A stretch of DNA of 64,000 nt, taken from assembly GCA_964187785.1 (NCBI GenBank), contig OZ076409.1, positions 36,148,001-36,212,000 on the forward strand, given 5' to 3'. Positions 12,001-47,911 of this stretch are shown piece by piece (position 1 is the stretch's first letter; the number at the start of each line of letters is the position of its first letter). The position numbers were made by a program, and so were the translations under genes. The notes under the pieces were generated by a model. It saw only the letters and a list, made by a program, of their open reading frames with translations. It did no database searches and was not told the origin of the DNA. This stretch comes from Amphiscolops sp. MND2022 (Eukaryota).

Positions 12001-15000
12001 GAATCAAAAAATCGCCAAATAAAACGATCAAATTTCTCCCATGCATAAATTAGGACTTAATATTTCAATGCAATCAAGTCTTTTGGAATCGGTTTCGTCC
12101 TACAATTGCTGCAGTATTCGATGCGCGTCTTTATCTGCAATCGATAAAAGCTTGGCCAAAGCTCCAAACTCAAGTTTGTGGATCTGCTCGCTTCAATGTC
12201 AATAATTAGTAAACGATTGCAATTGCTGACAAGCTTTCAGCTGTTTCAGCGTGAGTCGGTAAAATGATAGTTTGGAGGAACTAAGCCCAATTTCAGCTAC
12301 AGCTAACAAGCCGGGAACGGCCCAGGTCGGGGCTTCGCTGAAAGCTCACACAGCACTGAAAATTTTTAAGGCTAACGAGTTGATTTTTTTTTCAATTCTG
12401 CAGTCTCTCACATTGCCAAAAAACACCCCAAATGGGGGTTTTCTTACTCAAAACAACAAAGAAAATGGAAACCTTTGGTGAATTAAAGTGTCGATTAAAA
12501 AATTGTATAATGCCGAATCCCCCAAAGACAGAGTTTCCGAAGCTGTTTAGCCTCGTAAACGGCGCGAAAGCATGTTAGATACATTTTGGACTTGTACCAC
12601 GACAATATAAAACTACTGACGAAAAAAGTACGCTTCAGTTTAAGGCAGAAAAAAGTCACTGAAATAATCGACACCTTTTGTTCAAATAGGCTTAGTTTCT
12701 CCAAATTGATTTCTTACAGATTGGCAGGTTAAAATCCGGAGAAAATGAGGGGAACAGTTTAAAAATCGCGCTTAGTTTAAACAAATGTTCGTGACAAGGC
12801 AGAAATCAAGCTTAGGAAAAAACTATCCAAAAAACAACAAAATTAAAGGATTCCCAGTCGAAATATTTACAAAATTGACACTTTTGCGACCTTACTGGTC
12901 ATCGAATTGATAGGCATCCTTTCATGTTTAACCCTAAATGGACCAGGAACATTCCTGATCCATCCAAAAATCTGGTGCTTTAACTTTAAACTGCAATATC
13001 TCCTAAACCAATCAAGTCCGACAAACTATATATAGCGCGTTCGAAAGAAGAGTATCATGGCTTTCAAATCAATTTTTGAACGGCTGGGCTGGGGGCCGCT
13101 AGATCGGGCCCCTTGCGCGCAACGTTTTTTGCGCAGTCATCCGCTGGCGTGCGGCCTCGCCGCACTGACTCCGGACTTTGCGTCAAAACTTTGCACGCCT
13201 CGTGTCTCTGACTGCATTTCAGCATGCTTGAAAACAAGCTAGGTCCACTTTGACCCAATCTTGATAACAGTGGGATAGATTGGTCACAAACGAAAACTGG
13301 AAAAACGGAAAATCTGCAGTCATTTTTTTGAATTTTTTTGGTCCAGTTTTCTTGATTTCGGAGACATCATGTCATTATTCCCTGAAAATGCGTACAAGGC
13401 GATGTAATATCATCTAAAAATCTTATTCAAGAGTTTTCTTTACCATACGGCCAATTGATGCGTTTAGAAGTTTGCAGAAACTAACTGGTACGAGTTAATA
13501 TTCTGATACCTTTGAAATTGCGGAGTTTCCAAGCAGCTAGTTCTGCAAAACTTTCAAGAATCCAAGACAAAAATCACTTGCCTTAAGTTTTAGAAATTTT
13601 TTCAGGGCAGCTTTCATATTTCGCAGATGTTCTAGTTTATTGCAAAATAGTAGGGAGTAAAAGGGTTCGAAATTAGGCCAACATCTCCAAAAGATTTTGC
13701 TCCCAAAGGACAGTCGAATATGAATATTTAAAACCGGTCGGTTTTAAACCAAACTAGAAAATAAAACTAGAGAGCGAACGCTCATACTCGGTCCGAAAAG
13801 TCGTGAATGACACTGAAAACAAAAAAAATACGTCAAGCAAAATTTACAATGTATTTGGCAGTGTAATTTTATTGAGAGAAATCACTGAGGATCGAACAGA
13901 ATTCCATTCAGACAGCAAATCTAGCAATTTTCAAACTCGATATTGAAGCATTACATTCTTGAAGTTTCAGGCAAGTAGCAAAAACAACAAATAGAGAAAA
14001 TAATGTGAACCAAACGAAAAACTGAAAAGAAAGAAACGTCTTCACATGGCATCAGTGGCGGCTAACCATCAGCAGGTGGTCGTGATGAAAAGATTATAAA
14101 TACAGGTGAGCTCAGCAAGTGATTTCCCTTGAAAAATATTAAATGTACAAGAGTACAGTGGCACCTGAGGGGGCCTCGCCTCTCAAACACCGCCGAAACT
14201 CGCCATCAGAGGTCGAGATTTTTCATCAGCCAATCTTCATTTCATTTTACAAACCATGAAAATTATTAAGGTGATTATCGAACTGAGAGGAAGGGAAGCG
14301 AGAAAGATTTAATACCTCTGAATGGCCTTCGCGAAGTACCTGCAAAAGTTAATCATTGCAAAAGTTTCACTCCACATTGAAATTCATGGGACACCACTCG
14401 TTAAATATATGACACCGAGCAATAAACAAGAACGTCACTTTCTATCAATACTTTTCCGGATCAAAACCTTGCTTTAATTTCTTCGAACCTGTCTCTGATA
14501 AGGCTGAGAGACAACGGAAAATTCCACAACGGAAGCGAGACACACCGCAAACTAGGGTTACAATATAAGTTTTTTTACTGCCAGAATTTCTCCATTTCAA
14601 AACTTTTGTAAGGGTAACTTCTGTGAGTAGACCTTTTATCCGCCCCTACTGAAAGATGAATACCTTTGGTTGGAACTGACGTTCTTCTTTGTTGCTCAGT
14701 GCTTAGTTCGAAAGAAATACAATGATAATTTATGTGACCGTAAATTAATTGGATTGCAGCATTGTATATTACATGATTTGATTACATTCGCATCAAATAT
14801 GACATAAAGCAGCTAGAGCGGAAAGAAAAGACAAGATTAAAGCGTTTGAATCCCAAGACGACTCAAGGCAACTCACTCGTTCTAGCAGAGAGACGGTGGC
14901 TTTCAGAGATCCCTCGGGTCTTCCAAAAGGGAAGCAATACCTGAAATGGAATCGATTTGCCAATAACCGTGTGAGGACAAAAGGAGCCTCAATTACACGT

Positions 15001-18000
15001 AAAATCATACCAAGGTCAAAGAAATGACTTTTCGCGATGGCGATAGATCATGTATAACGCGCTACAATTGTCGAAAGTAGAATGTCGCGCCAAATTCTAC
15101 AAATGTCGAAATTTTTCCGCTAATTTGCTTCCAAGTCTCAGTTTGTATAGAGCAGGTTTTGGATCCATTCATGACGGTTACGGAAAAGGGAGGCAGACCA
15201 TAAAAAAGGCAAACATTTAGAAGCTCCCTGGGCTCTTTTCTATTTTCCCCCACCATCAAAATTTTTTGAGGGAAAATTACAAAAAACAAACAGGCCCCTG
15301 GTGCGCTAAAAGGGAGGGGGACACTTCTGAAACTGTCAACATTTTTGTCGCAGTTGAAGGGGGGACCCTTCGGCGAAAAAACAAATTTTCGAAAAAAAGT
15401 CTCACAATGCCGAAAAACAGAAAGGGGGGATCCTTCGGGATTTTTAAACACCCATTCGGTGGCAAAACATCAAAAAATTGAAGGGGGGAAATTATTTTCG
15501 GAAAAAAAGTCACGCCGTGCCGAAAAAAATTGAAAGGGAGGACCCTTTGGGATTTTTCAAAATCCATTCTGTCGCAAAACAGCAAAAAAATTGAAGGGGG
15601 GACCCTTTGGGGAAAAATTTTCCGAAAAAAGTCTCACAGTGCCCAAAAAAATTGAAAGGGGGGACCCTTTGGTCTCGCCCGGTATGGTATGTTACGCGGG
15701 AAAACAGGAAAAACCTTTTCGGTTCAGTTCGCTAGGCCAATGGTGCAATTTGGTGCAATAATATTTTGAGGAACTTTCAAGAACTATTTTGGATCAGTTC
15801 GTGTGGATTGAAAAGTCGCTATAATAGTCGCGTTTGACTTCATGAAGCGCCGACTAAAAATTACCTGTTTTTTGTGACTCAAAACAGGAAGCGGTTGAGT
15901 TTTCAAAAAGAAAGCGTGACTTCAAAAGGAAAAATGCGTGGACAGAGTTTGTATCTGAATTCTAAACGGTCATTCTGAGAATAAATGTGAAAGAAATGTT
16001 TCTAATTTAGTTCTAAGTCTTTTTATTTTAATATTTTCACGAAAATTTTCTTTAAAAAACAGCTGGTGGTGGGGGGGCGTCAGAAAAGAATCGCTCCCTG
16101 AAATTATTGAAGTGGAACTATGACCCGAATGCGGCAGAAAAGACAGATTTCGATGCGATGAATTTCCCATAAACTAATACTAGGCAATGCCTGTGATTGA
16201 CGAATGTCGATCAATTAACAATAATAGTGAAGAGCTTTGCTTGAAGCACGTGTCAATTAGAAAATAAGAGCATGATACCTGAAATTAGTGATTTGCTTCT
16301 CCAGAAACTCGCGTAGAGTATCTTTGAGTGATTCGAATCTTTCTTTTTCATCCACAGTCACAGTGCCAATTGCATCAGGCCTGAAACAGAGACACCCCGT
16401 TCAGTCCAGAAGCAAAATAAAAATTCGAAGCAGTTCAGCATAATTTAAAAAGTATAGATCGTTTCAAAAAGTTCGCGAGGCTAGGTACCAGCCTTTTAAT
16501 TAGCGATGCTATCGTATCAATTTCTGCAACCATGCGAGGCAAACGCACATCTGACGACCTTGCAAAATCGATGTACCGTTTTAAAGATGCAAACCCGGAT
16601 TATGCAAACTCAGCAATTGCTCGGGTTTTCTCGATTTCCGAGCCAACACTTAGAGGAATCCTGAAGCGACGTATTGGGCAGAAAAAAGTCAAATTGGGTC
16701 GAAAATCTGTACTCACAAGAAGAATCAAGCGTCAGCTTCTGGGCCGCGTTAATCGAAACTCAAAACTTCGGCCTTCTGACCTTCTGCTTACAGCCAGACG
16801 ACTCGTCTCCAATGCCACGGCACACCATTTTTTGAAAAATCGCGACATTCGAAATAGTGTTGTTGTACAAGACGTTCTTACGAATGCTCAGAAAGATAGG
16901 AGAGTTAACTGGTGCCGTCGACGTTTATTTTTTGACTTCACGAAAAGTATTTTCAGCGACGATTAATTAGTTCTAGTCTCGCGAACTTTTTGAAACGATC
17001 TATAGTTACAGAAATATGTTGACCATTTGATCTGTTCACATGTTGAAAAAGCTGAAGTTTTTTATCGGCGGATTGATAGGCTAAAATTGAGCGGAACTGC
17101 TCGTATTAGTCAAGCAGTTAAACAAACCGTATACTGAGAAAAAAGTAATACTGGCACAGACGGACCTCACTAAACGAACCATCGCTACAACCTTTTCTCG
17201 TAATGCAGCAATTTGGTTTCTAAACCAATCAAAATCAAGTACACTAACAAGTATTGGAAACAACGTAGGCTCCCTTTAACGTAATCAATGAGATACTGCC
17301 CAAGAGGTGCGGTAAACCGAGGCCCGGCTGTATTAGCATATACAATATAGGATGCAATAGAAAGTTACCTGTTTCCGTGGATATGAGAGGCACAAAAAGC
17401 GAAGGAGTAATGCAGCAGGGTGGGGTCGATTAAGTAGCCCACTCTGGCTTTGTCCAGAAGATCTTGCAAGTAACAGAGATGACGGTGACATCCTCTAACT
17501 CCGTATCTAGCACAATATTCGTCCAGTAGAAACACCTGCGCCGGAGAAAACCAGCCCTAGAATACATACAACAAATTTGTGCCAAAAAACATTTCCCCAG
17601 TAATAGTTAGTTGACTTGGAAATTGAACGCATCAAGCTCAGAAGAACGTGGAATATCACATAGTTCTTTTCCCTCACCAATCCGCTGAGCACCGGGATAT
17701 TTTTTGGTTCAAATGATTTCAAATAAATCATACTTTTAGGACGCAAGCGAAGCCGCTAATCAAAAACATCCTTTTTTCTCCAAAAGAATTCTCAGGACTC
17801 GAATGTTCGTTTTTGAACTATTGGCTTTTTCATGCCGACAAAAACTTTCAAAAATTGCACAAAACTTGCCGCCAAACTTTGTACAATATTTGAACAATTC
17901 AGGGGATATGAAATATCAAATAGTTCAAAGCCAAAGATTTATCTTCAGAATACCTTCATGCCACGAAATGCTGAGAAAACTGAAAAAATGTGAAAATAAG

Positions 18001-21000
18001 GCAAATACCTTTTTTCCAACTTGGAGGAGTCTCGATCTTGACGACGTTTTCAAAAGAAAAACTTGGTACTTCAGGGAACAATATACAAAACGATTCATGA
18101 CAGCGGTCTTTTTAAAATACACTAAATGGACAAAAAGATTTGCATGGCTACCGATTTTTTTCAAGTGAACTAAAGGGAGGCCGTTTGAGATTTTTTAACA
18201 TCCATTCTGTTGCAAAATATCAGAAAAATTGAAGGGGGACTCTTTGGAGACTCGAGAAAAGAAAATTTTGAACAGTCTCATAATGCCGAAAAATGTGAAA
18301 AAAGGGACCCTCTGCAATTTTTAGCATTCGTTCTGTTGCAAAAGATCAAAAAAATTGAAGGGGGGACTGGACTCTTTGGAGACTCGGAAAAAAACAAAAA
18401 TAAAGATTTTTGAACAGTCTCATAATGCCGAAAAATCTGAAAAAAGGGACCGTGTGCGATTTTTTAGCATTCGTTCTGTTGCAAAATATCAAAAAAAGGA
18501 AGGGAGGCCCTTTGGGGACAATGAAAAATTTTCAAAAAAGACTGACAAAGCCGAAGGGGGGAGTCTGTCAAAAAAAGTGGAACCTACTGCTTCTGATTCT
18601 TGAAAAAAATTTAGTGCATACGCACCGGTTTGAACACGAACCCTCTGGGTTGAAAAGCAATCATCTTACCACTAGACCTCGAACGCCTGAATTCTGCGAC
18701 TTGCCGTGCTTCGCAAACACTTGCGTACCTTTGAGGAAGACCAAATGAGCAATATCATACGGAGAACCAAGGGTAAAAGGACATTATAATATCATCAATT
18801 TTACAACGCCAAAAAATACCCGAAGGGATACGCATAAGTCTCGAAAACCATTTTTCCCCAACTGGAAACAGCGAAAAACCATTTTCTCAACGGAACCCCC
18901 CCACACACACACACACCCTTCAAAAAAACAGCAAAAGGAAAACAAATCGAAATTTCTCGAAAAAACTTTTGAGATGAAGGTCTCCGGTAAGTCGCATAGT
19001 GCCGAAAACCTTGAGGAGTCCTTTGCGCTCGCAAAACGTTTCGGTTCTTGTAAAAATTGAGGGAGGGGAGACTTCGATGAAAACAAATTTTAAAAAACAC
19101 CAGGTCTCTAAAAGAACAAATTTCTAGTATAGCGTGCTGGGCCTGAGAAAACCTAATTTTGGGACAAAAATTATTCATTTTGAAAAATCTCACATTGCCG
19201 AAAACTGCAAAAGGAGACGCTTTGAGATTTTTCAACATCCATTGTTGCAAAATATAGAAAAATTGAAGGGGAAGTCTTCGAGACTCGAAAAAATACAAAA
19301 AGAGAATTTTGAACAGTTTCAATGTCGAAAAATATTCAAAAAGGGACCATTTGCAATTTTTTAGCATTCGTTCTGTTGCAAAATATCAAAAAAATGAAGG
19401 GAGAACCCTTTGGGGACAATAAAAAATTTTCAAAAAAGTCTGACAAAGCCGAAGGGGGGAGTCTATGTCGAAAAAAGTGGAACCTACTGCTTCTGAATCT
19501 TGTAAAAAAATTCGTGCATACGCACCGGTTTGAACGCGAACCCTCTGGGTTGAAAAGCAATCATCTTACCACTAGATCTCGAACGCCTGAACTCTGCGAC
19601 TTGTCGTGCTTCGCAAACACTTGCGTACCTTTGAAGATCAAATGAGCAATATCATACGGAGAACCAAGGGTAAAAGGACATTAGAATATCATCAATTTTA
19701 CCACGCCAAAAAATACCCGAAGGGATACGCATAAGTCTCGAAAACCAATCTTCCCCAACTGGAAACAGCAAAAAACCATCTTTTTAACGGAAACCCCCTT
19801 TCAAAAAACCAGCAAAAGGAAAATAAACCGAAATTTCTCGAAAAAAATTTCGAGATGAAGGTCTCCGGTAAGTCGCATAGTGACGAAAACCTTGAGGAGT
19901 CCCTTGCGCTCGCAAAACGTTCCGGTTCTTGTGAAAATTGAGGGGAGACTTCGATGAAAACAAATTTTAAAAAAACACCAGGTCTCTAAAAGAACAAATT
20001 TCTGATATAGCGTGCTGGGCCCGAGAAAACCTAATTTTGGGACAAAAATTATTCATTTTGAAAATTCTCACATGGCCGAAAACTGCAAAAGGAGGCGCTT
20101 TGAGATTTTTCAACATCCATTGTTGCAAAATACAGAAAAATTGAAGGGGCAGTCTTCGAGACTCGAAAAAAATACAAAAAAGAGAATTTTGAAGTCTCAA
20201 TGTCGAAAAATATTTAACACAGAGGCGAAGCGGTGCTTCGCAACACATGACGAAGACATAGATTATTTTAATATGCGTATATATATTATTTTAATCGCAT
20301 GCGTATATATTCAACAGTTCAACTTTGTTCAATTCGTATATATTCAACAGTTCAACTTTGTTCAATAACGTCCCTATGGCACAGTGGTCAACACTTATGC
20401 CGTGCAATCGGGAGGCTGCAGGTTCGAATCTCTCTGGGGTTTTGGCTTTATTCTAAAAAGCGCTCATTATGAAGTTGACTATTGTGGAAAAAAAAACTTT
20501 CTTAGCTGGACTGCAATGCACATTGACTTCGTCATGTGCAAAAAAGGGACCATTTGCAATTTTTTAGCATTCGTTCTGTTGCAAAATATCAAAAAAATGA
20601 AGGGAGGACCCTTTGGGACAATGAAAAATTTTCAAAAAAGTCTGACAAAGCCGAAGGGGGGAGTCTATGTCGAAAAAAGTGGAACCTACAGCTTCTGAAT
20701 CTTGTAAAAAAAATTCGTGCATACGCACCGGTTTGAACGCGAACCTTCTGGGTTGGAAAGCAATCATCTTACCACTAGATCTCGAACGCCTGAACTCTGC
20801 GACTTGCCGTGCCTCGCAAACACTTGCGTACCTTTGAAGAAGACCAAATGAGCAATATCATACGGAGAACCAAGGGTAAAAGGACATTGGAATATCGTCA
20901 ATTTTACCACGCCAAAAAATACCCGAAGGGATACGCATAAGTCTCGAAAACCATTCTTCCCCAACTGGAAACAGCGAGAAACCATCTTTCTCAACGGAAA

Positions 21001-24000
21001 CCCCCTTTCAAAAAACCAGCAAAAGGAAAATAAATCGAAATTTCTCGAAAAAAATTCGAGATGAAGGTCTCCGGTAAGTCGCATAGTGACGAAAACCTTG
21101 AGGAGTCCCTTGCGCTCGCAAAACGTTTCGGTTCTTGTAAAAATTGAGGGAGGGGAGACTTCGATGAAAACAAATTTTAAAAAACACCAGGTCTCTAAAA
21201 GAACAAATTTCTGATATAGCGTGCTGGGCCCGAGAAAACCTAATTTTGGGACAAAAATTATTCATTTTGAAAAATCTCACATGGCCGAAAACTGCAAAAG
21301 GAGGCGCTTTGAGATTTTTCAACATCCATTGTTGCAAAATACAGAAAAAATGAAGGGGGAGTCTTCGAGACTCAAAAAAAATACAAAAAAGAGAATTTTG
21401 AAGTCTCAATGTCGAAAAATATTTAACACAGAGGCGAAGCGGTGCTTCGCAACACATGACGAAGACATAGATTATTTTAATATGCGTATATATATTATTT
21501 TAATCGCATGCGTATATATTCAACAGTTCAACTTTGTTCAATTCGTATATATTCAACAGTTCAACTTTGTTCAATAACGTCCCTATGGCACAGTGGTCAA
21601 CACTTATGCCGTGCAATCGGGAGGCTGCAGGTTCGAATCTCTCTGTTTTGGCTTTATTCTAAAATGCGCTCATTATGAAGTTGACTATAGTGGAAAAAAA
21701 ACTTTCTTAGCTGGACTGCAATGCACATTGACTTCGTCATGTGCAAAAAAGGGACTATTTGCGATTTTTTAGCATTCGTTCTGTTGCAAAATATCAAAAA
21801 AATGAAGGGAGGACCCTTTGGGGACAATAAAAAATTTTCAAAAAAGTCTGACAAAGCCGAAGGGGGGAGTCTATGTCGAAAAAAGTGGAACCTACAGCTT
21901 CTGAATCTTGTAAAAAAAATTCGTGCATACGCACCGGTTTGAACGCGAACCTTCTGGGTTGAAAAGCAATCATCTTACCACTAGATCTCGAACGCCTGAA
22001 CTCTGCGACTTGCCGTGCATCGCAAACACTTGCGTACCTTTGAAGACCAAATGAGCAATATCATACGGAGAACCAAGGGTAAAAGGACATTAGAATATCA
22101 TCAATTTTACCACGCCAAAAAATACCCGAAGGGATACGCATAAGTCTCGAAAACCATTCTTCCCCAACTGGAAACAGCGAGAAACCATCTTTCTCAACGG
22201 AAACCCCCTTTCAAAAAACCAGCAAAAGGAAAATAAATCGAAATTTCTCGAAAAAAAATTCGAGATGAAGGTCTCCGGTAAGTCGCATAGTGACGAAAAC
22301 CTTGAGGAGTCCCTTGCGCTCGCAAAACGTTTCGGTTCTTGTAAAAATTGAGGGAGGGGAGACTTCGATGAAAACAAATTTTAAAAAACACCAGGTCTCT
22401 AAAAGAACAAATTTCTGATATAGCGTGCTGGGCCCGAGAAAACCTAATTTTGGGACAAAAATTATTCATTTTGAAAAATCTCACATGGCCGAAAACTGCA
22501 AAAGGAGGCGCTTTGAGATTTTTCAACATCCATTGTTGCAAAATACAGAAAAATTGAAGGGGGAGTCTTCGAGACTCGAAAAAAATACAAAAAAGAGAAT
22601 TTTGAAGTCTCAATGTCGAAAAATATTTAACACAGAGGCGAAGCGGTGCTTCGCAACACATGACGAAGACATAGATTATTTTAATATGCGTATATATATT
22701 ATTTTAATCGCATGCGTATATATTCAACAGTTCAACTTTGTTCAATTCGTATATATTCAACAGTTCAACTTTGTTCAATAACGTCCCTATGGCACAGTGG
22801 TCAACACTTATGCCGTGCAATCGGGAGGCTGCAGGTTCGAATCTCTCTGGGGTTTTGGCTTTATTCTAAAAAGCGCTCATTATGAAGTTGACTATTGTGG
22901 AAAAAAAAACTTTCTTAGCTGGACTGCAATGCACATTGACTTCGTCATGTGCAAAAAAGGGACCATTTGCAATTTTTTAGCATTCGTTCTGTTGCAAAAT
23001 ATCAAAAAAATGAAGGGAGGACCCTTTGGGACAATGAAAAATTTTCAAAAAGTCTGACAAAGCCGAAGGGGGGAGTCTATGTCGAAAAAAGTGGAACCTA
23101 CAGCTTCTGAATCTTGTAAAAAAATTTGTGCATACGCACCGGTTTGAACGCGAACCTTCTGGGTTGAAAAGCAATCATCTTACCACTAGATCTCGAACGC
23201 CTGAACTCTGCGACTTGCCGTGCCTCGCAAACACTTGCGTACCTTTGAAGAAGACCAAATGAGCAATATCATACGGAGAACCAAGGGTAAAAGGACATTG
23301 GAATATCGTCAATTTTACCACGCCAAAAAATACCCGAAGGGATACGCATAAGTCTCGAAAACCATTCTTCCCCAACTGGAAACAGCAAGAAACCATCTTT
23401 CTCAACGGAACCCCCCTTTCAAAAAACCAGCAAAAGGAAAATAAATCGAAATTTCTCGAAAAAAAATTCGAGATGAAGGTCTCCGGTAAGTCGCATAGTG
23501 ACGAAAACCTTGAGGAGTCCCTTGCGCTCGCAAAACGTTTCGGTTCTTGTAAAAATTGAGGGAGGGGAGACTTCGATGAAAACAAATTTTAAAAAACACC
23601 AGGTCTCTAAAAGAACAAATTTCTGATATAGCGTGCTGGGCCCGAAAAAACCTAATTTTGGGACAAAAATTATTCATTTTGAAAAATCTCACATGGCCGA
23701 AAACTGCAAAAGAGGCGCTTTGAGATTTTTCAACATCCATTGTTGCAAAATACAGAAAAATTGAAGGGGGAGTCTTCGAGACTCGAAAAAAATACAAAAA
23801 AGAGAATTTTGAAGTCTCAATGTCGAAAAATATTTAACACAGAGGCGAAGCGGTGCTTCGCAACACATGACGAAGACATAGATTATTTTAATATGCGTAT
23901 ATATATTATTTAAATCGCATGCGTATATATTCAACAGTTCAACTTTGTTCAATTCGTATATATTCAACAGTTCAACTTTGTTCAATAACGTCCCTATGGC

Positions 24001-27000
24001 ACAGTGGTCAACACTTATGCCGTGCAATCGGGAGGCTGCAGGTTCGAATCTCTCTGGGGTTTTGGCTTTATTCTAAAAAGCGCTCATTATGAAGTTGACT
24101 ATTGTGGAAAAAACTTTCTTAGCTGGACTGCAATGCACATTGACTTCGTCATGTGCAAAAAAGGGACCATTTGCGATTTTTTAGCATTCGTTCTTTTGCA
24201 AAATATCAAAAAAATGAAGGGAGGACCCTTTGGGACAATGAAAAATTTTCAAAAAAGTCTGACAAAGCCGAAGGGGGGAGTCTATGTCGAAAAAAGTGGA
24301 ACCTACTGCTTCTGAATCTTGTAAAAAAAGTAGTGCATACGCACCGGTTTGAACGCGAACCTTCTGGGTTGAAAAGCAATCATCTTACCACTAGATCTCG
24401 ACCACTAGCCTGAACTCTGCGACTTGCCGTGCCTCGCAAACACTCGCGTACCTTTGAAGAAGACCAAATGAGCAATATCATACGGAGAACCAAGGGTAAA
24501 AGGACATTGGAATATCGTCAATTTTACCACGCCAAAAAATACCCGAAGGGATACACATAAGTCTCGAAAACCATTCTTCCCCAACTGGAAACAGCAAGAA
24601 ACCATCTTTCTCAACGGAACCCCCCTTTCAAAAAACCAGCAAAAGGAAAATAAATCGAAATTTCTCGAAAAAAAATTCGAGATGAAGTTCTCCGGTAAGT
24701 CGCATAGTGCCGAAAACCTTGAGGAGTACCTTGCGCTCGCAAAACGTTTCGGTTCTTGTAAAAATTGAGGGAGGGGAGACTTCGATGAAAACAAATTTTA
24801 AAAAACACCAGGTCTCTAAAAGAACAAATTTCTAGTATAGCGTGCTGGGCCTGAGAAAACCTAATTTTGGGACAAAAATTATTCATTTTGAAAAATCTCA
24901 CATTGCCGAAAACTGCAAAAGGAGGCGCTTTGAGATTTTTCAACATCCATTGTTGCAAAATATAGAAAAATTGAAGGGGAAGTCTTCGAGACTCGAAAAA
25001 AATACAAAAAAGAGAATTTTGAACAGTCTCAATGTCGAAAAATATTTAAAAAGGGACCATTTGCAATTTTTTAGCATTCGTTCTTTTGCAAAATATCAAA
25101 AAAAGGAAGGGAGGACCCTTTGGGGACAATAAAAAATTTTCAAAAATGTCTGACAAAGCCGAAGGGGGAGTCTATGTCGAAAAAAGTGAAACCTACTGCT
25201 TCTGAATCTTGTAAAAAAAATTCGTGCATACACACCGGTTTGAACGCGAACCCTCTGGGTTGAAAAGCAATCATCTTACCACTAGATCTCGAACGCCTGA
25301 ACTCTGCGACTTGCCGTGCTTCGCAAACACTTGCGTACCTTTGAAGACCAAATGAGCAATATCATACGGAGAACCAAGGGTAAAAGGACATTAGAATATC
25401 ATCAATTTTACCACGCCAAAAAATACCCGAAGGGATACGCATAAGTCTCGAAAACCATTCTTTCCCAACTGGAAACAGCAAGAAACCATCTTTCTCAACG
25501 GCCCCCCCCCCCTTTTCAAAAAACCAGCAAAAGGAAAATAAATCGAAATTTCTCGAAAAAAATTTCGAGATGAAGTTCTCCGGTAAGTCGCATAGTGCCG
25601 AAAACCTTGAGGAGTCCCTTGCGCTCGCAAAACGTTTCGGGTCTTGTGAAAATTGAGGGGAGACTTCGATGAAAACAAATTTTAAAAAACACCAGGTCTC
25701 TAAAAGAACCAATTTCTGATATAGCGTGCTGGGCCTGAGAAAACCTAATTTTGGGACAAAAATTATTCATTTTAAAAAACCTCACAATGCCGAAAACTGC
25801 AAAAGGGGGCGCTCTGAGTTTTTTCAACATCCATTCTGTTGCAAAATATCAAAAAAATTGAAGGGGGACTCTTCGGAGACTCGAAAAAAAACAAATAAGA
25901 GAATTTTGAACAGTCCCAATGCCGAAAAATCTGAAAAAAGGGACCTTTTGCGATTTTTTAGCATTCGTTGTTGCAAAATACCAAACAAAATTGAAGGGAG
26001 GACCCTTTGGGGAGAATCCAAGAACGACCATCAAAAATGACATATAAAGGTGTCATTAGATGGGTTTAGAGCACCACGTAGCAATTGGTCGCTTACCAGA
26101 CTGCAATAAGAATCAGCCAGTCGATGAATGAGAGCCAGACTTTGCAGCTTCTTGAACATTGAATGGTGATCTATTGTCTCCACACTCGCATTCACAAACT
26201 GCGTGAATTTTGCACTATCACCTGAAACACCAATCCACTCAAGTATTTCCAACATTATCACATTGACTTGCATATTTTTCTATGTAACTATACTGATCCC
26301 ATTTAACACCTTGTTAAGGAGACGAGCATGTTCAGAATGTTGTAATGAAAACCTCTGTTGAAATACTTTGGAGTCAAGTGGAAACAAACTTTAGAAAAAT
26401 GTCAAGCGTCAGCCTCTTAAGCTGAGAATGAAACCAAAATGAAGGCGCATGTCGCTTTTTCGAGAACGGAGATACGACAATAATCCTTATGAATTTTAAG
26501 GAAGTTTTAATTGAAATGCGTGTTATCAAATAGAGCCCAAAAAATCTGTTGAAATCCAAAGTCCCAGGTCACAACAACAAGCAACGCCTTCCTATTCGAA
26601 CAATGAAGCAGATTACGTCACAGAGAAACAGAAATGTTTGGATGCAACGCTCAATTCTCCACAAGTACAAGCGGCTGTCATAGATAATTTCATACTTGTA
26701 TGCTGTGTTTGAGAACTTCCCTGGGAGTGGTAACCCTTCGTACAACTGCATCAATTCAATTGTTTGGAACTAAACAATAAAATAACCGTTGCGCTGTGCG
26801 ATGCGCATGAAGAACAAACTGGAGCAGTGTCGATGTATACATGATGCCCGCTGCGCTAGTTGGCGCGAAAATGTCAAGGACATACATCCCGTCAATTAGT
26901 TTCAAGCTCATCGGTTGCATTTCTCGTAGCAGCGCTAGCTGCATTGGTGGGAAAATTGCCGTTCGCTAACCGAAGGACATTGTATCACTGGTTGAGTTGA

Positions 27001-30000
27001 GCATTTTCGGAAACGTCTTGTTTTCCAAGTTGTTTCACAAATCCAATTCCAGAAAACGGGGTCTGGGAATGGGGAAGTTCGGCTATTGTCTAACTCTCAT
27101 AATCGAATATCAGACAACAAATTTCAACTTGGCCTACATGCTGCCGAGACTGGCATTGATAATTTATGAGGGGTCAACAGCTAACGTGTTACACCCCTTT
27201 TTCCTCTGCCATAAATTGCCTAATCACTCTCGACAACTCCCTCTGGCTGTGGAAGAGCGAGTTCGAAAATGTTCAACGGGGAAGATATCTTGGATTGCCT
27301 TAGCGATGTTCCGAATTTATTTATGCAAACGAAATATGGCTAGAAAGCTGTGACTGGGCGAATAATTGATGAAAATTGTCATGATTTGGGTCTCCGAAAG
27401 TCGCAGATGGTAAGGAGGCTGTGACTTCTTCTGAAGACTGGTCTCGCCATCATGGCACTTGGGGGTTTCAAATGTGGCAACAGTACTAAAATTTTTGACA
27501 AGAAAGTCCAGGCTTTGAGATTTTTGGATGAAGAATGACGGCACTTTTCGGCGCATCTCACGTTTTTCGGGTGGCTCAAGATTACTCGGAGCGAAGCGAT
27601 AACGTGAAATGTTTGCTTACAAAACATTTAGAAAAATTCTTAGATGAAGTAAATGGAAGTTTCTACAAAGTGTATGAATATGCTTCCAGCTTTTCACATA
27701 TGCAACATTGAAAACTTTTTTGCAGGTTCGACTGAGGATACTTTCGCCTAAACTACGACATATGAGCGTTTCATTTCTAAAAAAATCGACAAGACTATCG
27801 GCGGAAAAATGGAAAATATTTAATCCTAGGTCCTCCACAGCAAAACTGAAGATAGATACAATGGAATGGTTTTCCTTCTAGTGAAGACATACTCTAGGAA
27901 TGAATTTGGCGTGTTTTGCAAACAGAGTCGCTTTCACTCAGTCTTCAGTGGCACCAATATGTTCAATGAGTCAGTTTCAGGTTTCAGCCACTCAGAAAAC
28001 CAACTACATTTTTCATTTTGGATAAAAGACCCAGCTATGAGAGATATTTTCCTCATGGTATTTACTCCTGATTTCTTATTAACTATATCATTAGACTTTT
28101 ATTGCTGCAAAAACAGATAATTCTGATTTTAATTCAATGCTTCGATTGAGGCAACCGATGCTGGTGGGTGGATTTGATCAAGTGACAGCGAACAAAATAA
28201 ATAGACCAAAGATAACCTACGCATAGGTGAGAAAGATTCAAGGATTACATTATGCAACAACAAAAAGTTCATATTTTAAATATCAGTAACACGACTGACC
28301 TTATGTTGAACTACTTTTTCACAGAAATTTCACAACCGAGTCAGGCAGAAAGTTGCATGAATATACAGGACGCCACGTATTACACCATTTTTCATCACAG
28401 TTTTCTTAATCTTACAATGGTTGATTTGGAGTAAGGTGTTCCAATTTATAAATCAGTCCTCCACTTGATGTTATCGAATGTATTTGCGGAGACTGATACT
28501 GCATAAGGCTCTGCTGTTTGCAACGCATTCTCAAACAACTACAGTCAAACTCGGATAAAAGAAACTCATTGGGCGGTGAGAAAATGGTTTCTTTTATCAA
28601 TAGTTTCTTTTATCAGTTGTCCTATTAACGTAGAAAGTTTGACTTGCATAAAATCGGAGGAGTGAAAACGTTTCTTATATCCGAATGTTTCTTTTATCCG
28701 AGTTCGACTGTATTCCTTTTATTGCAGAAGCGCCCCAGTTTCTCTCATGGGCAAGAAATCTTCACATTTCTCGTTGAGTGAGAACGGTCGATTTGGACCA
28801 ACATGTTAGAGCCTGACATTGTAGCATCACTAACTTGATTTGACTTGCTGTGACTTCACTTTGGTGGGAGGCTCGGGCCGGTAGCTTTGACCGGTTGCAC
28901 GTACAAGAGCAGTAATCCACCCGGTGCGTTCGTTCTCATTCTCAGCAGCAAAATCGATCGATTGACCTTCTTTCACTGCGTTGAAATAGAACAACTTTGG
29001 ATGTTGACCTAAAAGATATCAGTCATTTTCTATCTACGAGAGATTACACGGTACTTGACAGGGATACAAAAAGCGTTTTTTCATGATTGAACTGTTTCCT
29101 CGGTGTTTTTTGAAAATACATGTTTTTGCATTTTTAGTCGGCGCCTTTTCCCTTAAGGAAAAAAGCACAACTATTACAGTGGGTAGTTTTTTTTCAGCTG
29201 ACAATCTCACTCTGAATGGTCCACTTTTTTCACAATCTTTTGTTCATTTGTTCAACTAATTTTCTGAGAAGCAGGAGATCGTGGGTTCGATTCTCGCACT
29301 AAACCACAAATTTTTTTTATGCTTCCAAAAGTACAAGTGAGACCAAAGGGTCCCCCCTTTGGGTTTTTGGCACTATGCGAAAATTTTCGAATTCTATCAA
29401 AGGGTACCCCTTGCATTTTTTTGAAGTTTTCGGATTGTAAAACGTTTAATGAGCCTAAATGGCCTTTTTTTGTTTTTCGGCATTGTTCGACTTTTAAAAA
29501 AAATTAATTTTTTCTAAATGTTTCCAATAGTTGTTCCTTGAATATTTTTGAGCCTTAGATATGGCGCCGACTTGGGACGTTCCCGTCTTGTTTTTCCATC
29601 CGAAACCATATTTTAAAAATTGGATAAATGAAAATGATAGTTTCCAAGCTTTTCGAAACCGAGATTGACTTTTAGGATCCGGAACGTCATTCCCATTGTC
29701 CGGAAAATAGATTTATCGAGGCATCCACTAAAAGTCAAGAAAGTATTAATTGAAGTAAAACACTCGTTTTCTTCAAGCGTTTAGAAAGTGTTTTCTTTTT
29801 GCTTGTTTAGAACTTTTTTCTTTTATGACAACCATGGTACTTGATGAGCGACAGTCGGTCAGATAAATTTGGCAAAAAATTCAGGTATGTTTCCAATTTG
29901 GCGTCAACGAACAATTGGTTTCCTGCTGATCAAATGAATCTACAGCCATTTAGCAAAAACAATTGCAGGTATAGCCAGTAGACGGAAACGATTTCTAAAT

Positions 30001-45000: not shown

Positions 45001-47911
45001 CCAATATTTCTTCACATATTTGAGTTTTTAAACTTATATTTATGCCCATTTTTCGTTCATTTAAAACATATAAATCCGGTCCCTGTATGAAAGGCTAATG
45101 AGATTGAATCATCAAATATCAGTACTATGTTCATCAGATCGAAGAGTCGGTAACTATTCACGACTCAGGATATAAAAGGGTCAATGCCAGACACTAACCA
45201 TCAGTGGAGTCCTTCATGTTTCCGCTTTTGGCAGGACTGATGGGTGCCAGCGCAGACTGTGAAGTGGACAGTCCTCTCTGTTTGGAGCCGGCATTCAGAG
45301 GCGAAACTGGCGCCAAGTGAGACGCCGAACCAGATCTGTTGTCAGCACGTCGTCCAGGGGGTAACACATAACCTAAACGTACTTCATCCACAACACCAGT
45401 ACAAAGAATCCAAACTGTAAGAATCCATTCAGTCCAAAGAATCCATTCAGTACAAAGAATCAAAACTGTACAAAGTGCTGAAAAATTCAAGAATTTTGCA
45501 GATTCGAGTTGTTTGCAGGGTTTGACTTAGCACGAATTTTTAAAATCGAACAGTTTTTATTAAAGTATGGTTCATTACAATCAAATAATGTGAATAGCAT
45601 CATTTCATTAGAACTACCCCATAAGCTTACAACCAGAATGAACGCTTAAATGAGAAGGCCACAAAAATCTCGGTCTCGGAACAAAATAATTGTAAATAAT
45701 TGAAAAAAACTTCAAGTTGAGAAAAAACAGGATATAAAAAATACCACATAGTCAATGACACTGTTTTGAACGCCATTTTGCTTGAGAGTAACATTCAAGT
45801 TCATAGTTTCAAAACTCAGATTCGTCTAACATGTCTGCAAATTTCCACCTATTTAGAACGAACATGAAGATTTTTAGTTGAAACTGCGAAACATTGAAAA
45901 TGCCACAAAACAAGGTGCGTGACAAAAATCCAAAATTTAGTCTTTGAAATTTAAGATAGACGACCAAACATCTACATGTAATAATTTTTATTTCAATTTC
46001 TGGAGCGTCATTTTTCTACCTACATTGTTGCTTTTGCTTCAAAAACATTTTTTGCAGCATCTTCGGAAGTGGAAATTACAACAACAATCATGAAAAGTCA
46101 AGATTATTTCAATATATCATTGCCTACTTAGCAATTTTACGTGCACAAACAACTGAAGAAGGCATTATGTTGCCAAAAAGTCTGCTTTCAAGTCGGAAAT
46201 TGAGCCAAATATATGTCACATTGCAAGCATCAATTTCAAAAGGAGAGAAGCAGCGACCGACTTTCCCTTTAACAGCCTGTTTGAAAAAGAATTGTGCAAT
46301 TCATCGTCAGAAACAGGTGGTTTGACACAGTAATGCCGCGTGTAATACATTACATTGCAGGTTGAAAAAAAAAGAGTTATACTAATAAATAGAAAATCAA
46401 AGCATGATATAAGCCTAAGGACAGTCAAATTCAAAAGTAATTTTTAAACAGAGGCGAAGCCGTGCTTCGCAAACACTTGCGTACTTTTGAAGAAAACCAA
46501 ATAAGCAATATGAAAGGAGAACCAAGGGTAAAAGGACATTAAAATTTCATCAATTTTACAATATGCAGCGCCAAAAAATACCCGAAAGGATACGCATAAG
46601 TCTCGAAAACCATTCTTCCCCAACAGAAAACAGCAAAAAACCCATCTTTCTCAACGAAAAACCTTTAAAAAACAGAAAATTCAGGAAACAATTTTTCGAA
46701 AATATTTTTGATGGTCTCCGGTAAGTCGCATAGTGCCGAAAACCTCGAGGAGTCCTTAACTCTCGCAAAACGTTTCGTTACTGGCAAAAATTGAGGAGGG
46801 GCTCGGTGAAACACCTGTCTTCAAAACAACAAAAATCGGATATAGCGTGCCGGACCTGAGAAAACCTAATTTTAACACAAAAATTATTCCTTTTGAAAAA
46901 TGTCACAATGCCGGAAACTGTGAAAGAGGGGACCCTTTGAGATTTTTTACCATCCATTCTGTTCCAAAATTTCAAAAAATGGGGGACTCTTTGGAGTCTT
47001 TAATAAAAATTTTCGAAAAAAAAACAAAAAGAGTAATTTTAATGGCAGTCTCATAGTGCCGAAAAATCTGAAGGGACCCTTTGGGAATTTTTAACATTCG
47101 TTCTGTTGCAAGATATCAAACAAAGAGAAGGGTGGACCCTTTGTAGACATTAAAAATTTTTGAAAAAAAAACAAAAAATGAAACGGGAGTCTTCAAAAAA
47201 ATTTCGAAAAAAAGAATTTTGAACAGTCTCATAGTGCCGAAAAAAGTTAGAACCTTCTGCTTCGGAATACTTGTGAAAAAATAAGCGCATACCCACGGGT
47301 TCGAACACGAAACCTCTGGGTTGAAAAGCAAACATCTTACCACTAGACCACGAACGCGTGAAATGTGCGACTTGCCGCGTGAAATGTGAGTTGTCGCGCG
47401 GACAAAAAAGCACCCGCACTTTCCCATAACACTTGCTTATCGCAAGTAAAATTATGAAATTGATGGGTTAAATGCTTATCAGTTAGCATGGAACTTCTAA
47501 TGGAAATTCAGGGGTTGTGATTTACCTGTATCAGGATTTTTAGCTGTATAGTCAGCACAAGGGCCGCGTAAAGTACTTATTAGAGCACCATTTCATGCTG
47601 CGCCGACTAGACATGGTAATACTCATTAAACTGCACGAGCTTTCAACTTGAAACTTCCAACAAGTTTGCAAACAAGGACAATGTCTTAGACAGAAAAAGT
47701 TCAAAAACACAGTTCGAAAGCACTTCAAAGAAATCTCCATTCATCTTCCAGACAAGGATACATTGAACATACTTCGATAATGGTAATTATACATGAAAAG
47801 AATTAAGAAAAAAGGTTTACCGGGCGGCAGACAAAGACCTCTGCTGTCTGGCTGATAGAAGTAATCGGTTTCTGTTTCAGACTCGTCTTCCTCTGACGAA
47901 ATCTCAATCAT
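2912..47911 (-). CDS. CADPS: Calcium-dependent secretion activator (CAPS/UNC-31), spliced gene span; 17 coding exons in window, 3' part outside window
   Basis: Exons assembled by hand; all have GT..AG boundaries and matching phases. Peptides match remembered CAPS motifs: [15 protein letters not shown]2 ([14 protein letters not shown]), PH ([17 protein letters not shown]), [47 protein letters not shown]. Confidence 0.95.
3285..3551 (-). repeat. 3' LTR
   Basis: One mismatch to 8967-9233; PPT AGAAGGGAGGAAA (3564-3552) is adjacent. Confidence 0.97.
3637..8913 (-). pseudogene. gag-pol polyprotein (Zn knuckles, aspartic protease, RT, RNase H, integrase) broken by frameshifts and stops
   Basis: [14 protein letters not shown] knuckle, VDTGS protease, WLDD RT, TDAS..ELELLAV RNase H, HFGH..CVAC and D,D,E integrase. 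Lesions near 8332, 6424-6434, 4882 (TAA) and 4294 (TAG). Confidence 0.93.
8953..8966 (-). promoter_or_regulatory. Primer-binding site, probably tRNA-Ser
   Basis: TGGCGCAGTCAGCA abuts the 5' LTR; complementary to ..TGCTGACTGCG-CCA, the 3' end I recall for invertebrate tRNA-Ser. Confidence 0.8.
8967..9233 (-). repeat. 5' LTR
   Basis: Direct repeat of 3285-3551, followed immediately by the PBS. Confidence 0.97.
9850..10260. repeat. Dispersed repeat, second copy at about 31959-32392
   Basis: Colinear similarity from ttctatcatagc to ggtcatctctg. Confidence 0.7.
12932..13253 (+). mobile_element. piggyBac-like non-autonomous repeat
   Basis: Starts TTAA-CCCTAAATGGACCAGG; partial inverted match CTAGGTCCACTTT near 13240-13252; homologous to 1-277. 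Confidence 0.55.
14877..14940 (-). CDS. CADPS: CADPS coding exon 16 ([21 protein letters not shown])
   Basis: 64 nt, phase 2-0, gtgagt donor. Confidence 0.95.
15290..15861 (-). mobile_element. HINE family A copy (5' end intact)
   Basis: Ends tagtcgcgtttgacttcatgaagcgccgactaaaaa; internal aaggggggaccctt repeats. Confidence 0.8.
16279..16380 (-). CDS. CADPS: CADPS coding exon 15 ([21 protein letters not shown])
   Basis: 102 nt, phase 2-2. Confidence 0.93.
16455..17002 (+). mobile_element. Tc1-family transposon, internal-deletion derivative
   Basis: 30-bp TIRs TAGATCGTTTCAAAAAGTTCGCGAG(G/A)CTAG with one mismatch; TA on both flanks. Confidence 0.92.
16532..16966 (+). CDS. Truncated Tc1 transposase, N-terminal HTH DNA-binding region only (144 aa)
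   Basis: HTH ([18 protein letters not shown]), GRK linker, [12 protein letters not shown], ending at IFSD (first catalytic Asp motif) next to the right TIR. Confidence 0.8.
   Translation: MRGKRTSDDLAKSMYRFKDANPDYANSAIARVFSISEPTLRGILKRRIGQKKVKLGRKSVLTRRIKRQLLGRVNRNSKLRPSDLLLTARRLVSNATAHHFLKNRDIRNSVVVQDVLTNAQKDRRVNWCRRRLFFDFTKSIFSDD
17369..17556 (-). CDS. CADPS: CADPS coding exon 14 ([25 protein letters not shown])
   Basis: 188 nt, phase 0-2, strongly conserved CAPS peptide. Confidence 0.95.
20216..20541 (-). mobile_element. HINE family C (~325 bp); further copies at 21425-21746, 22629-22954, 23836-24158
   Basis: 12-bp subterminal IR CACATGACGAAG, 5' hairpin, 3' stem-loop GCGAAGC-ACC-GCTTCGC; inserted in an A/T tract without TSD (empty sites near 19338 and 25048). 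Confidence 0.85.
20370..20441 (+). ncRNA. tRNA-derived cassette inside HINE family C (4 copies); not a functional tRNA
   Basis: A box TGGCACAGTGG, B box GGTTCGAATC, followed by TTTT; stems imperfect. Confidence 0.65.
26097..26221 (-). CDS. CADPS: CADPS coding exon 13 (..[17 protein letters not shown])
   Basis: 125 nt, phase 1-0, gtaagc donor. Confidence 0.9.
28542..28710. mobile_element. pogo/Tigger-like MITE
   Basis: TA|CAGTCAAACTCGGATAAAAGAAAC..GTTTCTTTTATCCGAGTTCGACTG|TA. Confidence 0.88.
28835..29008 (-). CDS. CADPS: CADPS coding exon 12, end of PH domain ([20 protein letters not shown])
   Basis: 174 nt, phase 1-1, gttagt donor. Confidence 0.9.
29131..29595 (+). mobile_element. HINE family A, complete copy with B-box segment
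   Basis: TTTTTAGTCGGCGC 5' end; GCGCCGACT plus hairpin plus TGTTTTT 3' end; close relative at 61599-62144. Confidence 0.85.
30759..30937 (-). CDS. CADPS: CADPS coding exon 11, PH domain ([27 protein letters not shown])
   Basis: 179 nt, phase 2-1. Confidence 0.95.
31072..31235 (-). CDS. CADPS: CADPS coding exon 10 ([18 protein letters not shown])
   Basis: 164 nt, phase 0-2. Confidence 0.9.
31303..31414 (-). CDS. CADPS: CADPS coding exon 9, C2 domain ([20 protein letters not shown])
   Basis: 112 nt, phase 2-0. Confidence 0.92.
33429..33932 (-). mobile_element. HINE family D copy
   Basis: Homologous to 54118-54666; CCCC-TCC-GGGG hairpin and TATTTCTGC subterminal repeat. Confidence 0.8.
34429..35002 (+). 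mobile_element. HINE family A copy
   Basis: tttttagtcggcgcttcatgaag 5' end, ggcgccgact 3' subterminal repeat. Confidence 0.8.
36911..37117 (-). CDS. CADPS: CADPS coding exon 8, start of C2 domain ([35 protein letters not shown])
   Basis: 207 nt, phase 2-2, gtaaga donor. Confidence 0.92.
37613..37791 (-). CDS. CADPS: CADPS coding exon 7 ([20 protein letters not shown]..)
   Basis: ttccag acceptor, gtattt donor, phase 0-2. Confidence 0.9.
37895..38055. mobile_element. pogo/Tigger-like MITE
   Basis: 19-bp perfect TIR CAGTGGATCCCGGATATAA, TA on the left flank; partial copy near 35028-35065. Confidence 0.88.
38557..38637 (-). CDS. CADPS: CADPS coding exon 6 ([27 protein letters not shown])
   Basis: 81 nt, tttag/gtgaga, phase 0-0; not in the ORF track. 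Confidence 0.9.
39204..39500 (-). CDS. CADPS: CADPS coding exon 5 ([23 protein letters not shown])
   Basis: 297 nt, phase 0-0, conserved [16 protein letters not shown] motif. Confidence 0.95.
40708..40942 (-). CDS. CADPS: CADPS coding exon 4 ([27 protein letters not shown])
   Basis: Hallmark CAPS motif; phase 2-0. Confidence 0.95.
41272..41404 (-). CDS. CADPS: CADPS coding exon 3 ([17 protein letters not shown])
   Basis: ttcaag acceptor, gtaggc donor, phase 1-2. Confidence 0.85.
41520..41845 (-). mobile_element. Degenerate HINE family A copy (another near 40112-40420)
   Basis: tctaaggctcaaaaa and cactataatactcgcg..gactaaaaa end motifs. Confidence 0.65.
42415..42528 (+). mobile_element. tRNA-derived SINE-like head
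   Basis: GGGCACAGTTGG A-like box and GGTTCGAACCC B box; downstream aaaatatcccggtgct(t/c)agcgg also occurs inverted near 17681-17705. Confidence 0.6.
42990..43455 (-). mobile_element. HINE family A, complete copy
   Basis: aacaagccgggaccggcccaagtcggcgcc at one end, tagtcgactcttttctctagaaaagcgtcgacta hairpin at the other. Confidence 0.85.
44199..44703 (-). mobile_element. HINE family A, complete copy (clearest exemplar)
   Basis: 5' near-palindrome TAGTCGGCGCTTTTCTTAAGAAAAGAGCCCGACTA; 3' GCGCCGACT then AGACG-TTCC-CGTCT then TGTTT; internal tandem repeats; no TSD. Confidence 0.88.
45199..45372 (-). CDS. CADPS: CADPS coding exon 2 (low-complexity N-terminal region)
   Basis: tttag acceptor, gttagt donor, 174 nt open, phase 1-1. 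Confidence 0.75.
46446..47451 (-). mobile_element. HINE family B, complete solo copy (parent type of the 18-26 kb array)
   Basis: 5' TTTT-ACTTGC-GATAA-GCAAGT hairpin; 3' CGCAAGT then GCGAAGC-ACG-GCTTCGC then CTCTGTTT. Confidence 0.85.
47287..47357 (-). ncRNA. tRNA-derived cassette (resembles tRNA-Gly TCC) in HINE family B; 7 more copies in the array
   Basis: GCGTTCGTGGTCTAGTGGTAAG (A box), GTTCGAACC (B box), T-tract a few bases downstream; anticodon stem broken. Confidence 0.65.
47821..47911 (-). CDS. CADPS: CADPS coding exon 1 ([30 protein letters not shown])
   Basis: ATG at 47911, acidic SSEEDE start like the CAPS N-terminus, GTAAAC donor, phase 1 fits next exon. Confidence 0.8.

Follow-up and report, generated by a model that had tools for sequence, protein, structure and literature searches.

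End-less HINE-derived units form a tandem array, probably amplified locally, in a CADPS intron of the acoel Amphiscolops sp.

An array of end-less units in an intron

How does a transposable element that has lost both of its ends come to fill an intron in several head-to-tail copies? This question is raised by a stretch of 64,000 nucleotides from the acoel Amphiscolops sp. MND2022 (GenBank assembly GCA_964187785.1, contig OZ076409.1, positions 36,148,001 to 36,212,000), referred to here as the window. An intron of its CADPS/CAPS gene contains an array of 7.8 kb in which a repeat, family A, is present about seven times, head to tail; this repeat resembles the non-autonomous Helentrons known as HINEs. 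The array is characterised by one junction common to its units, the loss of both element termini, a single insertion of a second element (C), nested ages and mosaic units. With moderate confidence it is regarded as an immobilised, locally amplified HINE array, whose founder already carried the junction and was imported or circular, and which grew by unequal exchange. All copy numbers and absences reported for family A, C and the junction refer to the 64-kb window, the material of this analysis.

The array and its surroundings are composed as follows (positions are those of the window).

17557..26096, minus strand: host intron of the CADPS/CAPS gene, GT-AG, 8,540 bp
18172..26017, minus strand (element orientation): tandem array made of HINE-like family A units that lack their ends
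18172..18702, minus strand: U0, left partial unit with three central subrepeats of ~120 bp and the tail; starts within the subrepeat palindrome, without element terminus
18703..19602, minus strand: U1, complete unit without C, 900 bp
19603..20805, minus strand: U2, C-bearing unit
20806..22011, minus strand: U3, C-bearing unit
22012..23216, minus strand: U4, C-bearing unit
23217..24425, minus strand: U5, C-bearing unit
24426..25312, minus strand: U6, complete unit without C, 887 bp; its start resembles U5, its later part U1
25313..26017, minus strand: U7, right partial unit; ends within the second subrepeat at the palindrome, without element terminus
18696..18714, plus strand: first of seven junctions, an internal site fused to the middle of the hairpin at GCCG
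19596, 20799, 22005, 23210, 24419 and 25306, plus strand: starts of the remaining six junction 19-mers
46446..47451, minus strand: intact solo copy of family A, with ~20% divergence from the units; used as reference for the sequence removed at the junction

The array occupies 92% of the intron, the proportion given in an earlier description made from the sequence alone (the original prediction), and its unit lengths were likewise reproduced: junctions at 18698, 19598, 20801, 22007, 23212, 24421 and 25308 are spaced by 900, 1203, 1206, 1205, 1209 and 887 bp. The longest stop-to-stop frame of the array is 194 amino acids. Exact-pattern scans of metagenome and viral contigs found the repeat in no stretch; an animal repeat is not expected there, so that this result is no evidence either way.

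A single junction common to all units

A 19-mer spanning the junction was matched seven times in the window with at most one mismatch, always in the array, and in none of 100 shuffled sequences. The original prediction let every junction read alike. The breakpoint is indeed the same in all seven, but only two match exactly; the other five carry one substitution each, in one case inside GCCG. The fusion site was placed correctly: the equivalent of solo positions 47374-47377 is joined to that of 46459-46462. Relative to the solo element, each unit is short of 74 bp at the 5' end and of 13 bp at the 3' end, and the remainder is joined at GCCG. Every junction has thus lost the intact 5' end and the 3' hairpin, and the terminal hairpin folds at none of them, in agreement with the predicted absence of the 5' end and breakage of the 3' stem-loop. 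The array units are HINE-derived, not HINEs.

At the junction, the identity between units and solo element extends over 12 bp to one side and over 26 bp to the other. If positions of the solo element are paired at random, ~4% of the pairs show microhomology of at least 4 nt, and a further 4-mer match lies directly upstream at both donor sites. With a divergence of 19.9-20.7% from the units, the solo element is a proxy for the parent, not the parent itself. One and the same junction is expected from a circle, from a dimer with a deletion or from a tandem duplication; all three give it. Nested self-insertion was rejected as its source, since neither an intact end nor a T run is found there.

HINE-like features of family A and element C

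HINE/DINE-1 elements are described as having subterminal inverted repeats (subTIRs) of 12-15 bp, a nested 5' inverted repeat, a 3' hairpin and T runs as targets (PMC4067079). The solo family A element, read on the minus strand, starts in a T run, where a short fold-back is formed; a 7-bp subTIR, a hairpin with a 7-bp stem, and Ts make up its other end. The 3' stem-loop, the nested 5' inverted repeat and T-run flanks are therefore present, and the centre consists of subrepeats of ~120 bp; the perfect subTIR of only 7 bp is below the published range. To judge from its open frames, family A appears to have no coding capacity.

Element C was found in four of the six complete units and nowhere else:

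20218..20539, minus strand: C copy 1, 322 bp; intact HINE-like element with 12-bp subTIRs, 5' inverted repeat and 3' hairpin, in a T run
21427..21744, minus strand: C copy 2, 318 bp; the most diverged (0.9-1.2%)
22631..22952, minus strand: C copy 3, 322 bp; identical to copy 1
23838..24156, minus strand: C copy 4, 319 bp

All four copies have a perfect 12-bp subTIR at both ends. The 3' hairpin (7-bp stem) is predicted at -7.5 kcal/mol and the fold-back of the 5' end at -7.3 kcal/mol. The terminal 25 bp match the hairpin end of the solo element at 24 positions. The restriction of C to the four central units and its intact copy of the same stem-loop, both noted in the original prediction, were thus recovered, and the HINE-like anatomy proposed for A and C is supported. 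The insertion site is the same in all cases: the empty sites of U1 and U6 read 5 A on the plus strand, while filled sites have 2 and 6 A, and no other duplication was seen. With its subTIRs, 3' stem-loop, nested 5' inverted repeat and insertion into a T run without target-site duplication, C would be classified as a HINE on sequence features. Patterns for the Rep and helicase motifs of an autonomous partner had no match in the window.

The tails of the family A units contain a tRNA-like segment:

19515..19586, minus strand: tRNA-like segment, Rfam tRNA model, 20.8 bits, E 0.2, under the 29-bit cut-off

In the solo element it lies at 47296-47357 (minus strand), near the 5' end; scores in family A range from 19 to 20.8 bits, below the same cut-off. 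A tRNA-like segment of C, on the opposite strand at about 20370-20442 (plus), was obtained with relaxed ARAGORN settings only. Rfam at the gathering threshold and ARAGORN gave no match in the window. These segments are possibly captured heads of short interspersed elements. An RNA route through an RNA polymerase III transcript starting in the tRNA-like segment was considered and rejected, on account of the weak match and the frequent T runs on that strand. Such T runs would terminate a polymerase III transcript.

A third HINE-like family is represented by 29130-29595 (plus), 44199-44704 (minus), 60724-61295 (plus) and 61599-62143 (plus), and by partial copies at 15354-15860, 34429-35002, 42990-43400 and 41537-41824. 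Its termini differ, with a 9-bp subTIR, its own 3' hairpin and T-run flanks, while a central subrepeat of ~115-125 bp is common to it and family A, as if terminal modules and central repeats had been exchanged between HINE-like families.

Array edges and origin of the founder

Both edges of the array end at a palindromic motif inside the central subrepeats, and no family A terminus was found in the array or in its flanks within the intron (612 bp on the left, 79 bp on the right). Eleven of twelve flank alignments were within the range of shuffled sequences; the twelfth is a 13-mer that matches the subrepeat region on the opposite strand and is unrelated to a terminus. In a tree of 25 segments, one spurious match included, the edge subrepeats group with the subrepeats of the array itself and branch basally. 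Derivation of the edge subrepeats from the other HINE-like family was rejected by this grouping, which has moderate support on a short alignment. The two edges differ by 8.8-9.6%. Taken together, U0 and U7 amount to 1,232 bp, a permuted element that spans a whole unit plus ~250 bp of subrepeat redundancy.

The motif at the edges (18172 and 26013) is also where another element of the window is truncated (15354). It may be a hotspot of breakage or false termination. The half of the family A hairpin that is missing is matched exactly by a 9-mer within 17740-17760, 420 bp to the left of the array, near an imperfect palindrome of 118 bp (17812-17929). This hairpin half, at 17747, was rejected as the lost left terminus, because the flanks are unlike family A and the left-flank alignments are at chance level.

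Duplication in place would leave an intact hairpin at the left edge and an intact 5' end at the right edge. Since both are missing, a circle or imported fragment is favoured. The original prediction of a microhomology duplication or a circle is therefore retained in its second part, extended to an imported fragment, while the first is disfavoured.

Formation within the intron is accordingly rather unlikely. The junction would have arisen there, either from an intact A element duplicated in tandem at a microhomology or from a deletion across a head-to-tail dimer, followed by unequal exchange, and separate deletions would later have removed the two outer ends. Deletions at tandem junctions are common in dimers of DNA transposons, 24 of 36 in the passage on hobo (PMC5932611), and the truncated element at 15354 was cut at the same palindrome. 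The window also contains a direct tandem duplication of ~2.55 kb at 53771-58859, 98.3% identical and with 3-nt microhomology at its breakpoints, which is either a real recent duplication or merged haplotypes. Against this origin, two extra deletions are required, both ending inside subrepeats, and the flanks hold no remnant of a terminus.

A more specific version of the imported founder is unlikely as well. It takes the founder as a Helentron transposition circle in which both joined ends were lost by microhomology deletion between adjacent hairpins and which was reintegrated through a break in the central repeats; circles of this end-less type would repeatedly lead from HINEs to intronic satellites in acoels. 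For Fusarium, the relevant part of PMC5148889 reports Helitron2 circles whose ends are joined.

Amplification by unequal exchange

Substitution distances are nested: 20% to the solo element, 8.8-9.6% between the edges, 4.6-5.3% between U1 and U2-U6, 2.5-3.9% between U6 and U2-U5, 1.0-1.4% among U3-U5 and 0-1.2% among the C copies. Distances of 6-9% for U7 are inflated by a badly aligned A-rich stretch. With edges ~9% apart, the junction and the founding event are old, and only the C-bearing expansion is recent. The predicted order, first the junction, then the C insertion and last the amplification of the composite unit, is supported. As in satellites, the head-to-tail units are homogenised, with 1.0-5.3% difference among U1-U6 compared to 20% from the solo element, and the edges are more diverged. 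To describe the array as a satellite caught in the act of forming was an overstatement, since the founding is old and ~7 copies in 7.8 kb are not evidently growing into a satellite.

The units are mosaics. A four-gamete test on 590 gap-free columns of U1-U7, excluding C, a gappy region and the tail, gave 69 incompatible pairs among 120 informative pairs of sites. When clonal evolution was simulated on the fitted tree, this value was reached in 0, 5 and 13 of 1000 runs as rate variation was raised. A wider alignment gave 98 incompatible pairs out of 190. Shared substitutions were found in 24 columns among eight segments, compared to 0.7-4.5 on average, and at most 13, in star simulations of six units. 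The units are thus not star-like, and later conversion could obscure a star signal. Among exact matches, the longest extend over 488 bp at an offset of two units, 302 bp at one, 201 bp at three and 194 bp at five (U1 and U6). Differences between units comprise 53 transitions and 41 transversions; many others are homopolymer lengths. The block of C-type sequence starts between 19848 and 20004 and ends between 24675 and 24710, in the same phase four units apart and neither at the ends of C nor at the junction, so that several exchanges are needed to explain it. Mosaic units, with exchanges offset by one, two and five units, speak for unequal exchange or conversion rather than for rolling-circle read-through. 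Of the two drivers named in the original prediction, unequal exchange, joined by conversion, is consequently preferred, and rolling-circle read-through is not.

Insertion of the array, or of its C-bearing core, in one step as a rolling-circle concatemer, produced by read-through of a Helentron transposase or by amplification of a circle, is quite improbable. Both families have the anatomy of rolling-circle elements, the C block comprises only whole units, in phase, C would supply intact ends, and an early concatemer could be masked by later conversion. Helitron concatemers after loss of the terminator have been described: in plant centromeres, truncated elements became tandem when internal recombination removed the terminator (Xiong et al. 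2016, as summarised in PMC12628747). In that summary the arrays have many 5' ends and a single 3' end, the opposite of the CADPS-intron array, which has no family A end of either kind. The A units also lack the 5' end needed for initiation, the units are mosaic and not star-like, and the block boundaries are not at the termini of C.

There is equally little to suggest that the junction marks a genome-wide satellite or subfamily from which a block was copied with its variants and C already in place. Edges without termini look as if cut from a longer array and the units form a lineage distinct from the solo element, but divergence increases towards the edges and C is restricted to the centre, as for growth in place, and no further junction occurs elsewhere in the window. 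An assembly artefact in copy number or mosaicism, through merged haplotypes or polishing with mis-mapped reads, might be suspected from the many homopolymer differences and the second tandem duplication with 98.3% identity, but hardly accounts for units none of which duplicates another (longest exact match 488 bp), for differences that are mostly substitutions with nested ages, or for exons that join correctly in frame on both sides.

Proposed history of the array

From these observations we infer the route of the founder, its seeding by subrepeats and unequal exchange as the driver of growth. A circle or a dimer would have brought the ends of a family A HINE together head to tail, with loss at GCCG of ~90 bp over both termini, which would remove the 5' subTIR and inverted repeat and break the 3' hairpin. 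A junction-bearing, circularly permuted piece of ~1.2 kb, opened in the central subrepeats, may then have reached the CADPS intron by reintegration of a circle or by copying from a tandem elsewhere. U0 and U7 are taken as the shell of this founder. Its redundant ends, similar subrepeats over ~250 bp, could have acted as direct repeats and seeded the first unequal crossing-over, yielding units of ~890 bp. C inserted once, in the T run of one unit, and the C-bearing unit would have risen from one copy to four by several unequal exchanges and conversions, the mosaic of which is visible in the units.

Five points weigh against this history. The ~2.55-kb duplication with 3-nt microhomology indicates that duplication in place happens in this window. 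The size of the deletion and the microhomology are known indirectly, the solo element being a proxy with 20% divergence. The edges overlap by ~250 bp and do not sum to exactly one monomer. A site-by-site test of the internal units as chimeras of the two edges was weakly consistent. Finally, neighbouring sites were not significantly more compatible than others (p=0.16), contrary to what simple crossing-over would lead one to expect; short conversion tracts or noise from consensus polishing could be behind this result.

The host gene and other repeats

The exons next to the array-bearing intron are:

17368..17556, minus strand: CADPS exon downstream of the intron, 63 codons read
26097..26225, minus strand: CADPS exon upstream of the intron, 43 codons read

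PDB, Pfam and the protein atlas left the downstream exon unnamed; the name came from a homologue search, in which it resembled CADPS/CAPS proteins (120 of 7,078 matches listed). Among the matches listed, the acoels Symsagittifera roscoffensis (95%) and Convolutriloba macropyga (92%) were the most similar. Along the minus strand, 17 matched segments are collinear with an acoel CADPS protein. The exons flanking the array correspond to residues 683-725 and 726 onward and join correctly and in frame. Both are intact, and 79 bp separate the end of the array from the splice donor. No function of the array and no effect on CADPS are indicated.

A later CADPS intron contains a long terminal repeat (LTR) retrotransposon at 3282-9233 (minus), with 270-bp LTRs that are 99.3% identical and with protease, reverse transcriptase and RNase H domains; its gag and pol are spread over several frames. 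In a CADPS intron, a frame of 181 amino acids at 16421-16966 (plus) has no Pfam match; by eye we take it to resemble the N-terminal part of a Tc1-type transposase. Two more dispersed repeat families, with ~80% identity, are found at 1-284 and 12925-13218, and at 33428-33926, 54117-54659 and 56654-57199.

Comparison with known arrays and implications

By analogy, the array is best read as a tandem array derived from a transposable element of the Bari1 kind, a type already known from flies. In the passages of PMC5932611 on Drosophila melanogaster, the same terminal deletion recurs at every junction of Bari1 arrays, incomplete elements stand at the edge, and the origin of these arrays from a circle or a dimer is debated. 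One terminal deletion at all seven junctions and partial edge elements are shared with Bari1. Unlike Bari1, a cut-and-paste element, the CADPS-intron array is HINE-derived, intronic, partial at both edges and contains a nested element; a flanking duplication of ~500 nt mentioned for one Bari1 array has no counterpart here. The same passages report for the R1 array that deletions and element insertions in single units later rose in copy number, which is ascribed to unequal exchange. C likewise multiplied along with its unit, whereas R1 is a retrotransposon whose array, of 0.5-1.3 Mb, is said there to have begun as a dimer with target-site duplication.

In the section on Rsp-like euchromatic clusters of Drosophila simulans in PMC7403614, truncated first and last repeats are read as possible traces of reintegrated circles that expanded by unequal exchange. 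The CADPS-intron array is similarly small and truncated in its first and last repeats, but the Rsp-like truncated repeats sum to one monomer and are of satellite origin, as described in that section, while here they overlap by ~250 bp and derive from a transposon. Routes through microhomology and non-allelic recombination are treated in parts of the review PMC9659126.

With HINE/DINE-1 and with Cg_HINE of Crassostrea gigas, for which a passage in PMC7492417 gives satellite-like central repeats, the elements studied here share subTIRs, of 12 bp in C but with only 7 bp perfect in family A, the nested 5' inverted repeat, the 3' hairpin, T-run targets and central tandem repeats. As far as those texts describe it, the satellite-like array is usually the central repeat; in the CADPS intron it is nearly the whole element without its ends. 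Truncated, tandemised and nested parts of HINEs are mentioned for oyster in PMC12628747.

No description of HINEs in acoels or of family A was found in the literature searched, mostly freely accessible texts, with supplements, where repeat tables may stand, outside its scope; 'Helitron' and 'rolling' occur nowhere in the main text of PMC9911081. The locus suggests that an acoel genome contains three or more families of HINE-like elements. If the founder was an end-less Helentron circle, the central repeats of an element would seed its own expansion, and a nested intact HINE would be able to remobilise the composite. The locus retains, within single-copy flanks, the readable steps of junction, local duplication, nested insertion and re-expansion, so that the question of circle or dimer, left open for Bari1, should be testable at the CADPS-intron locus.

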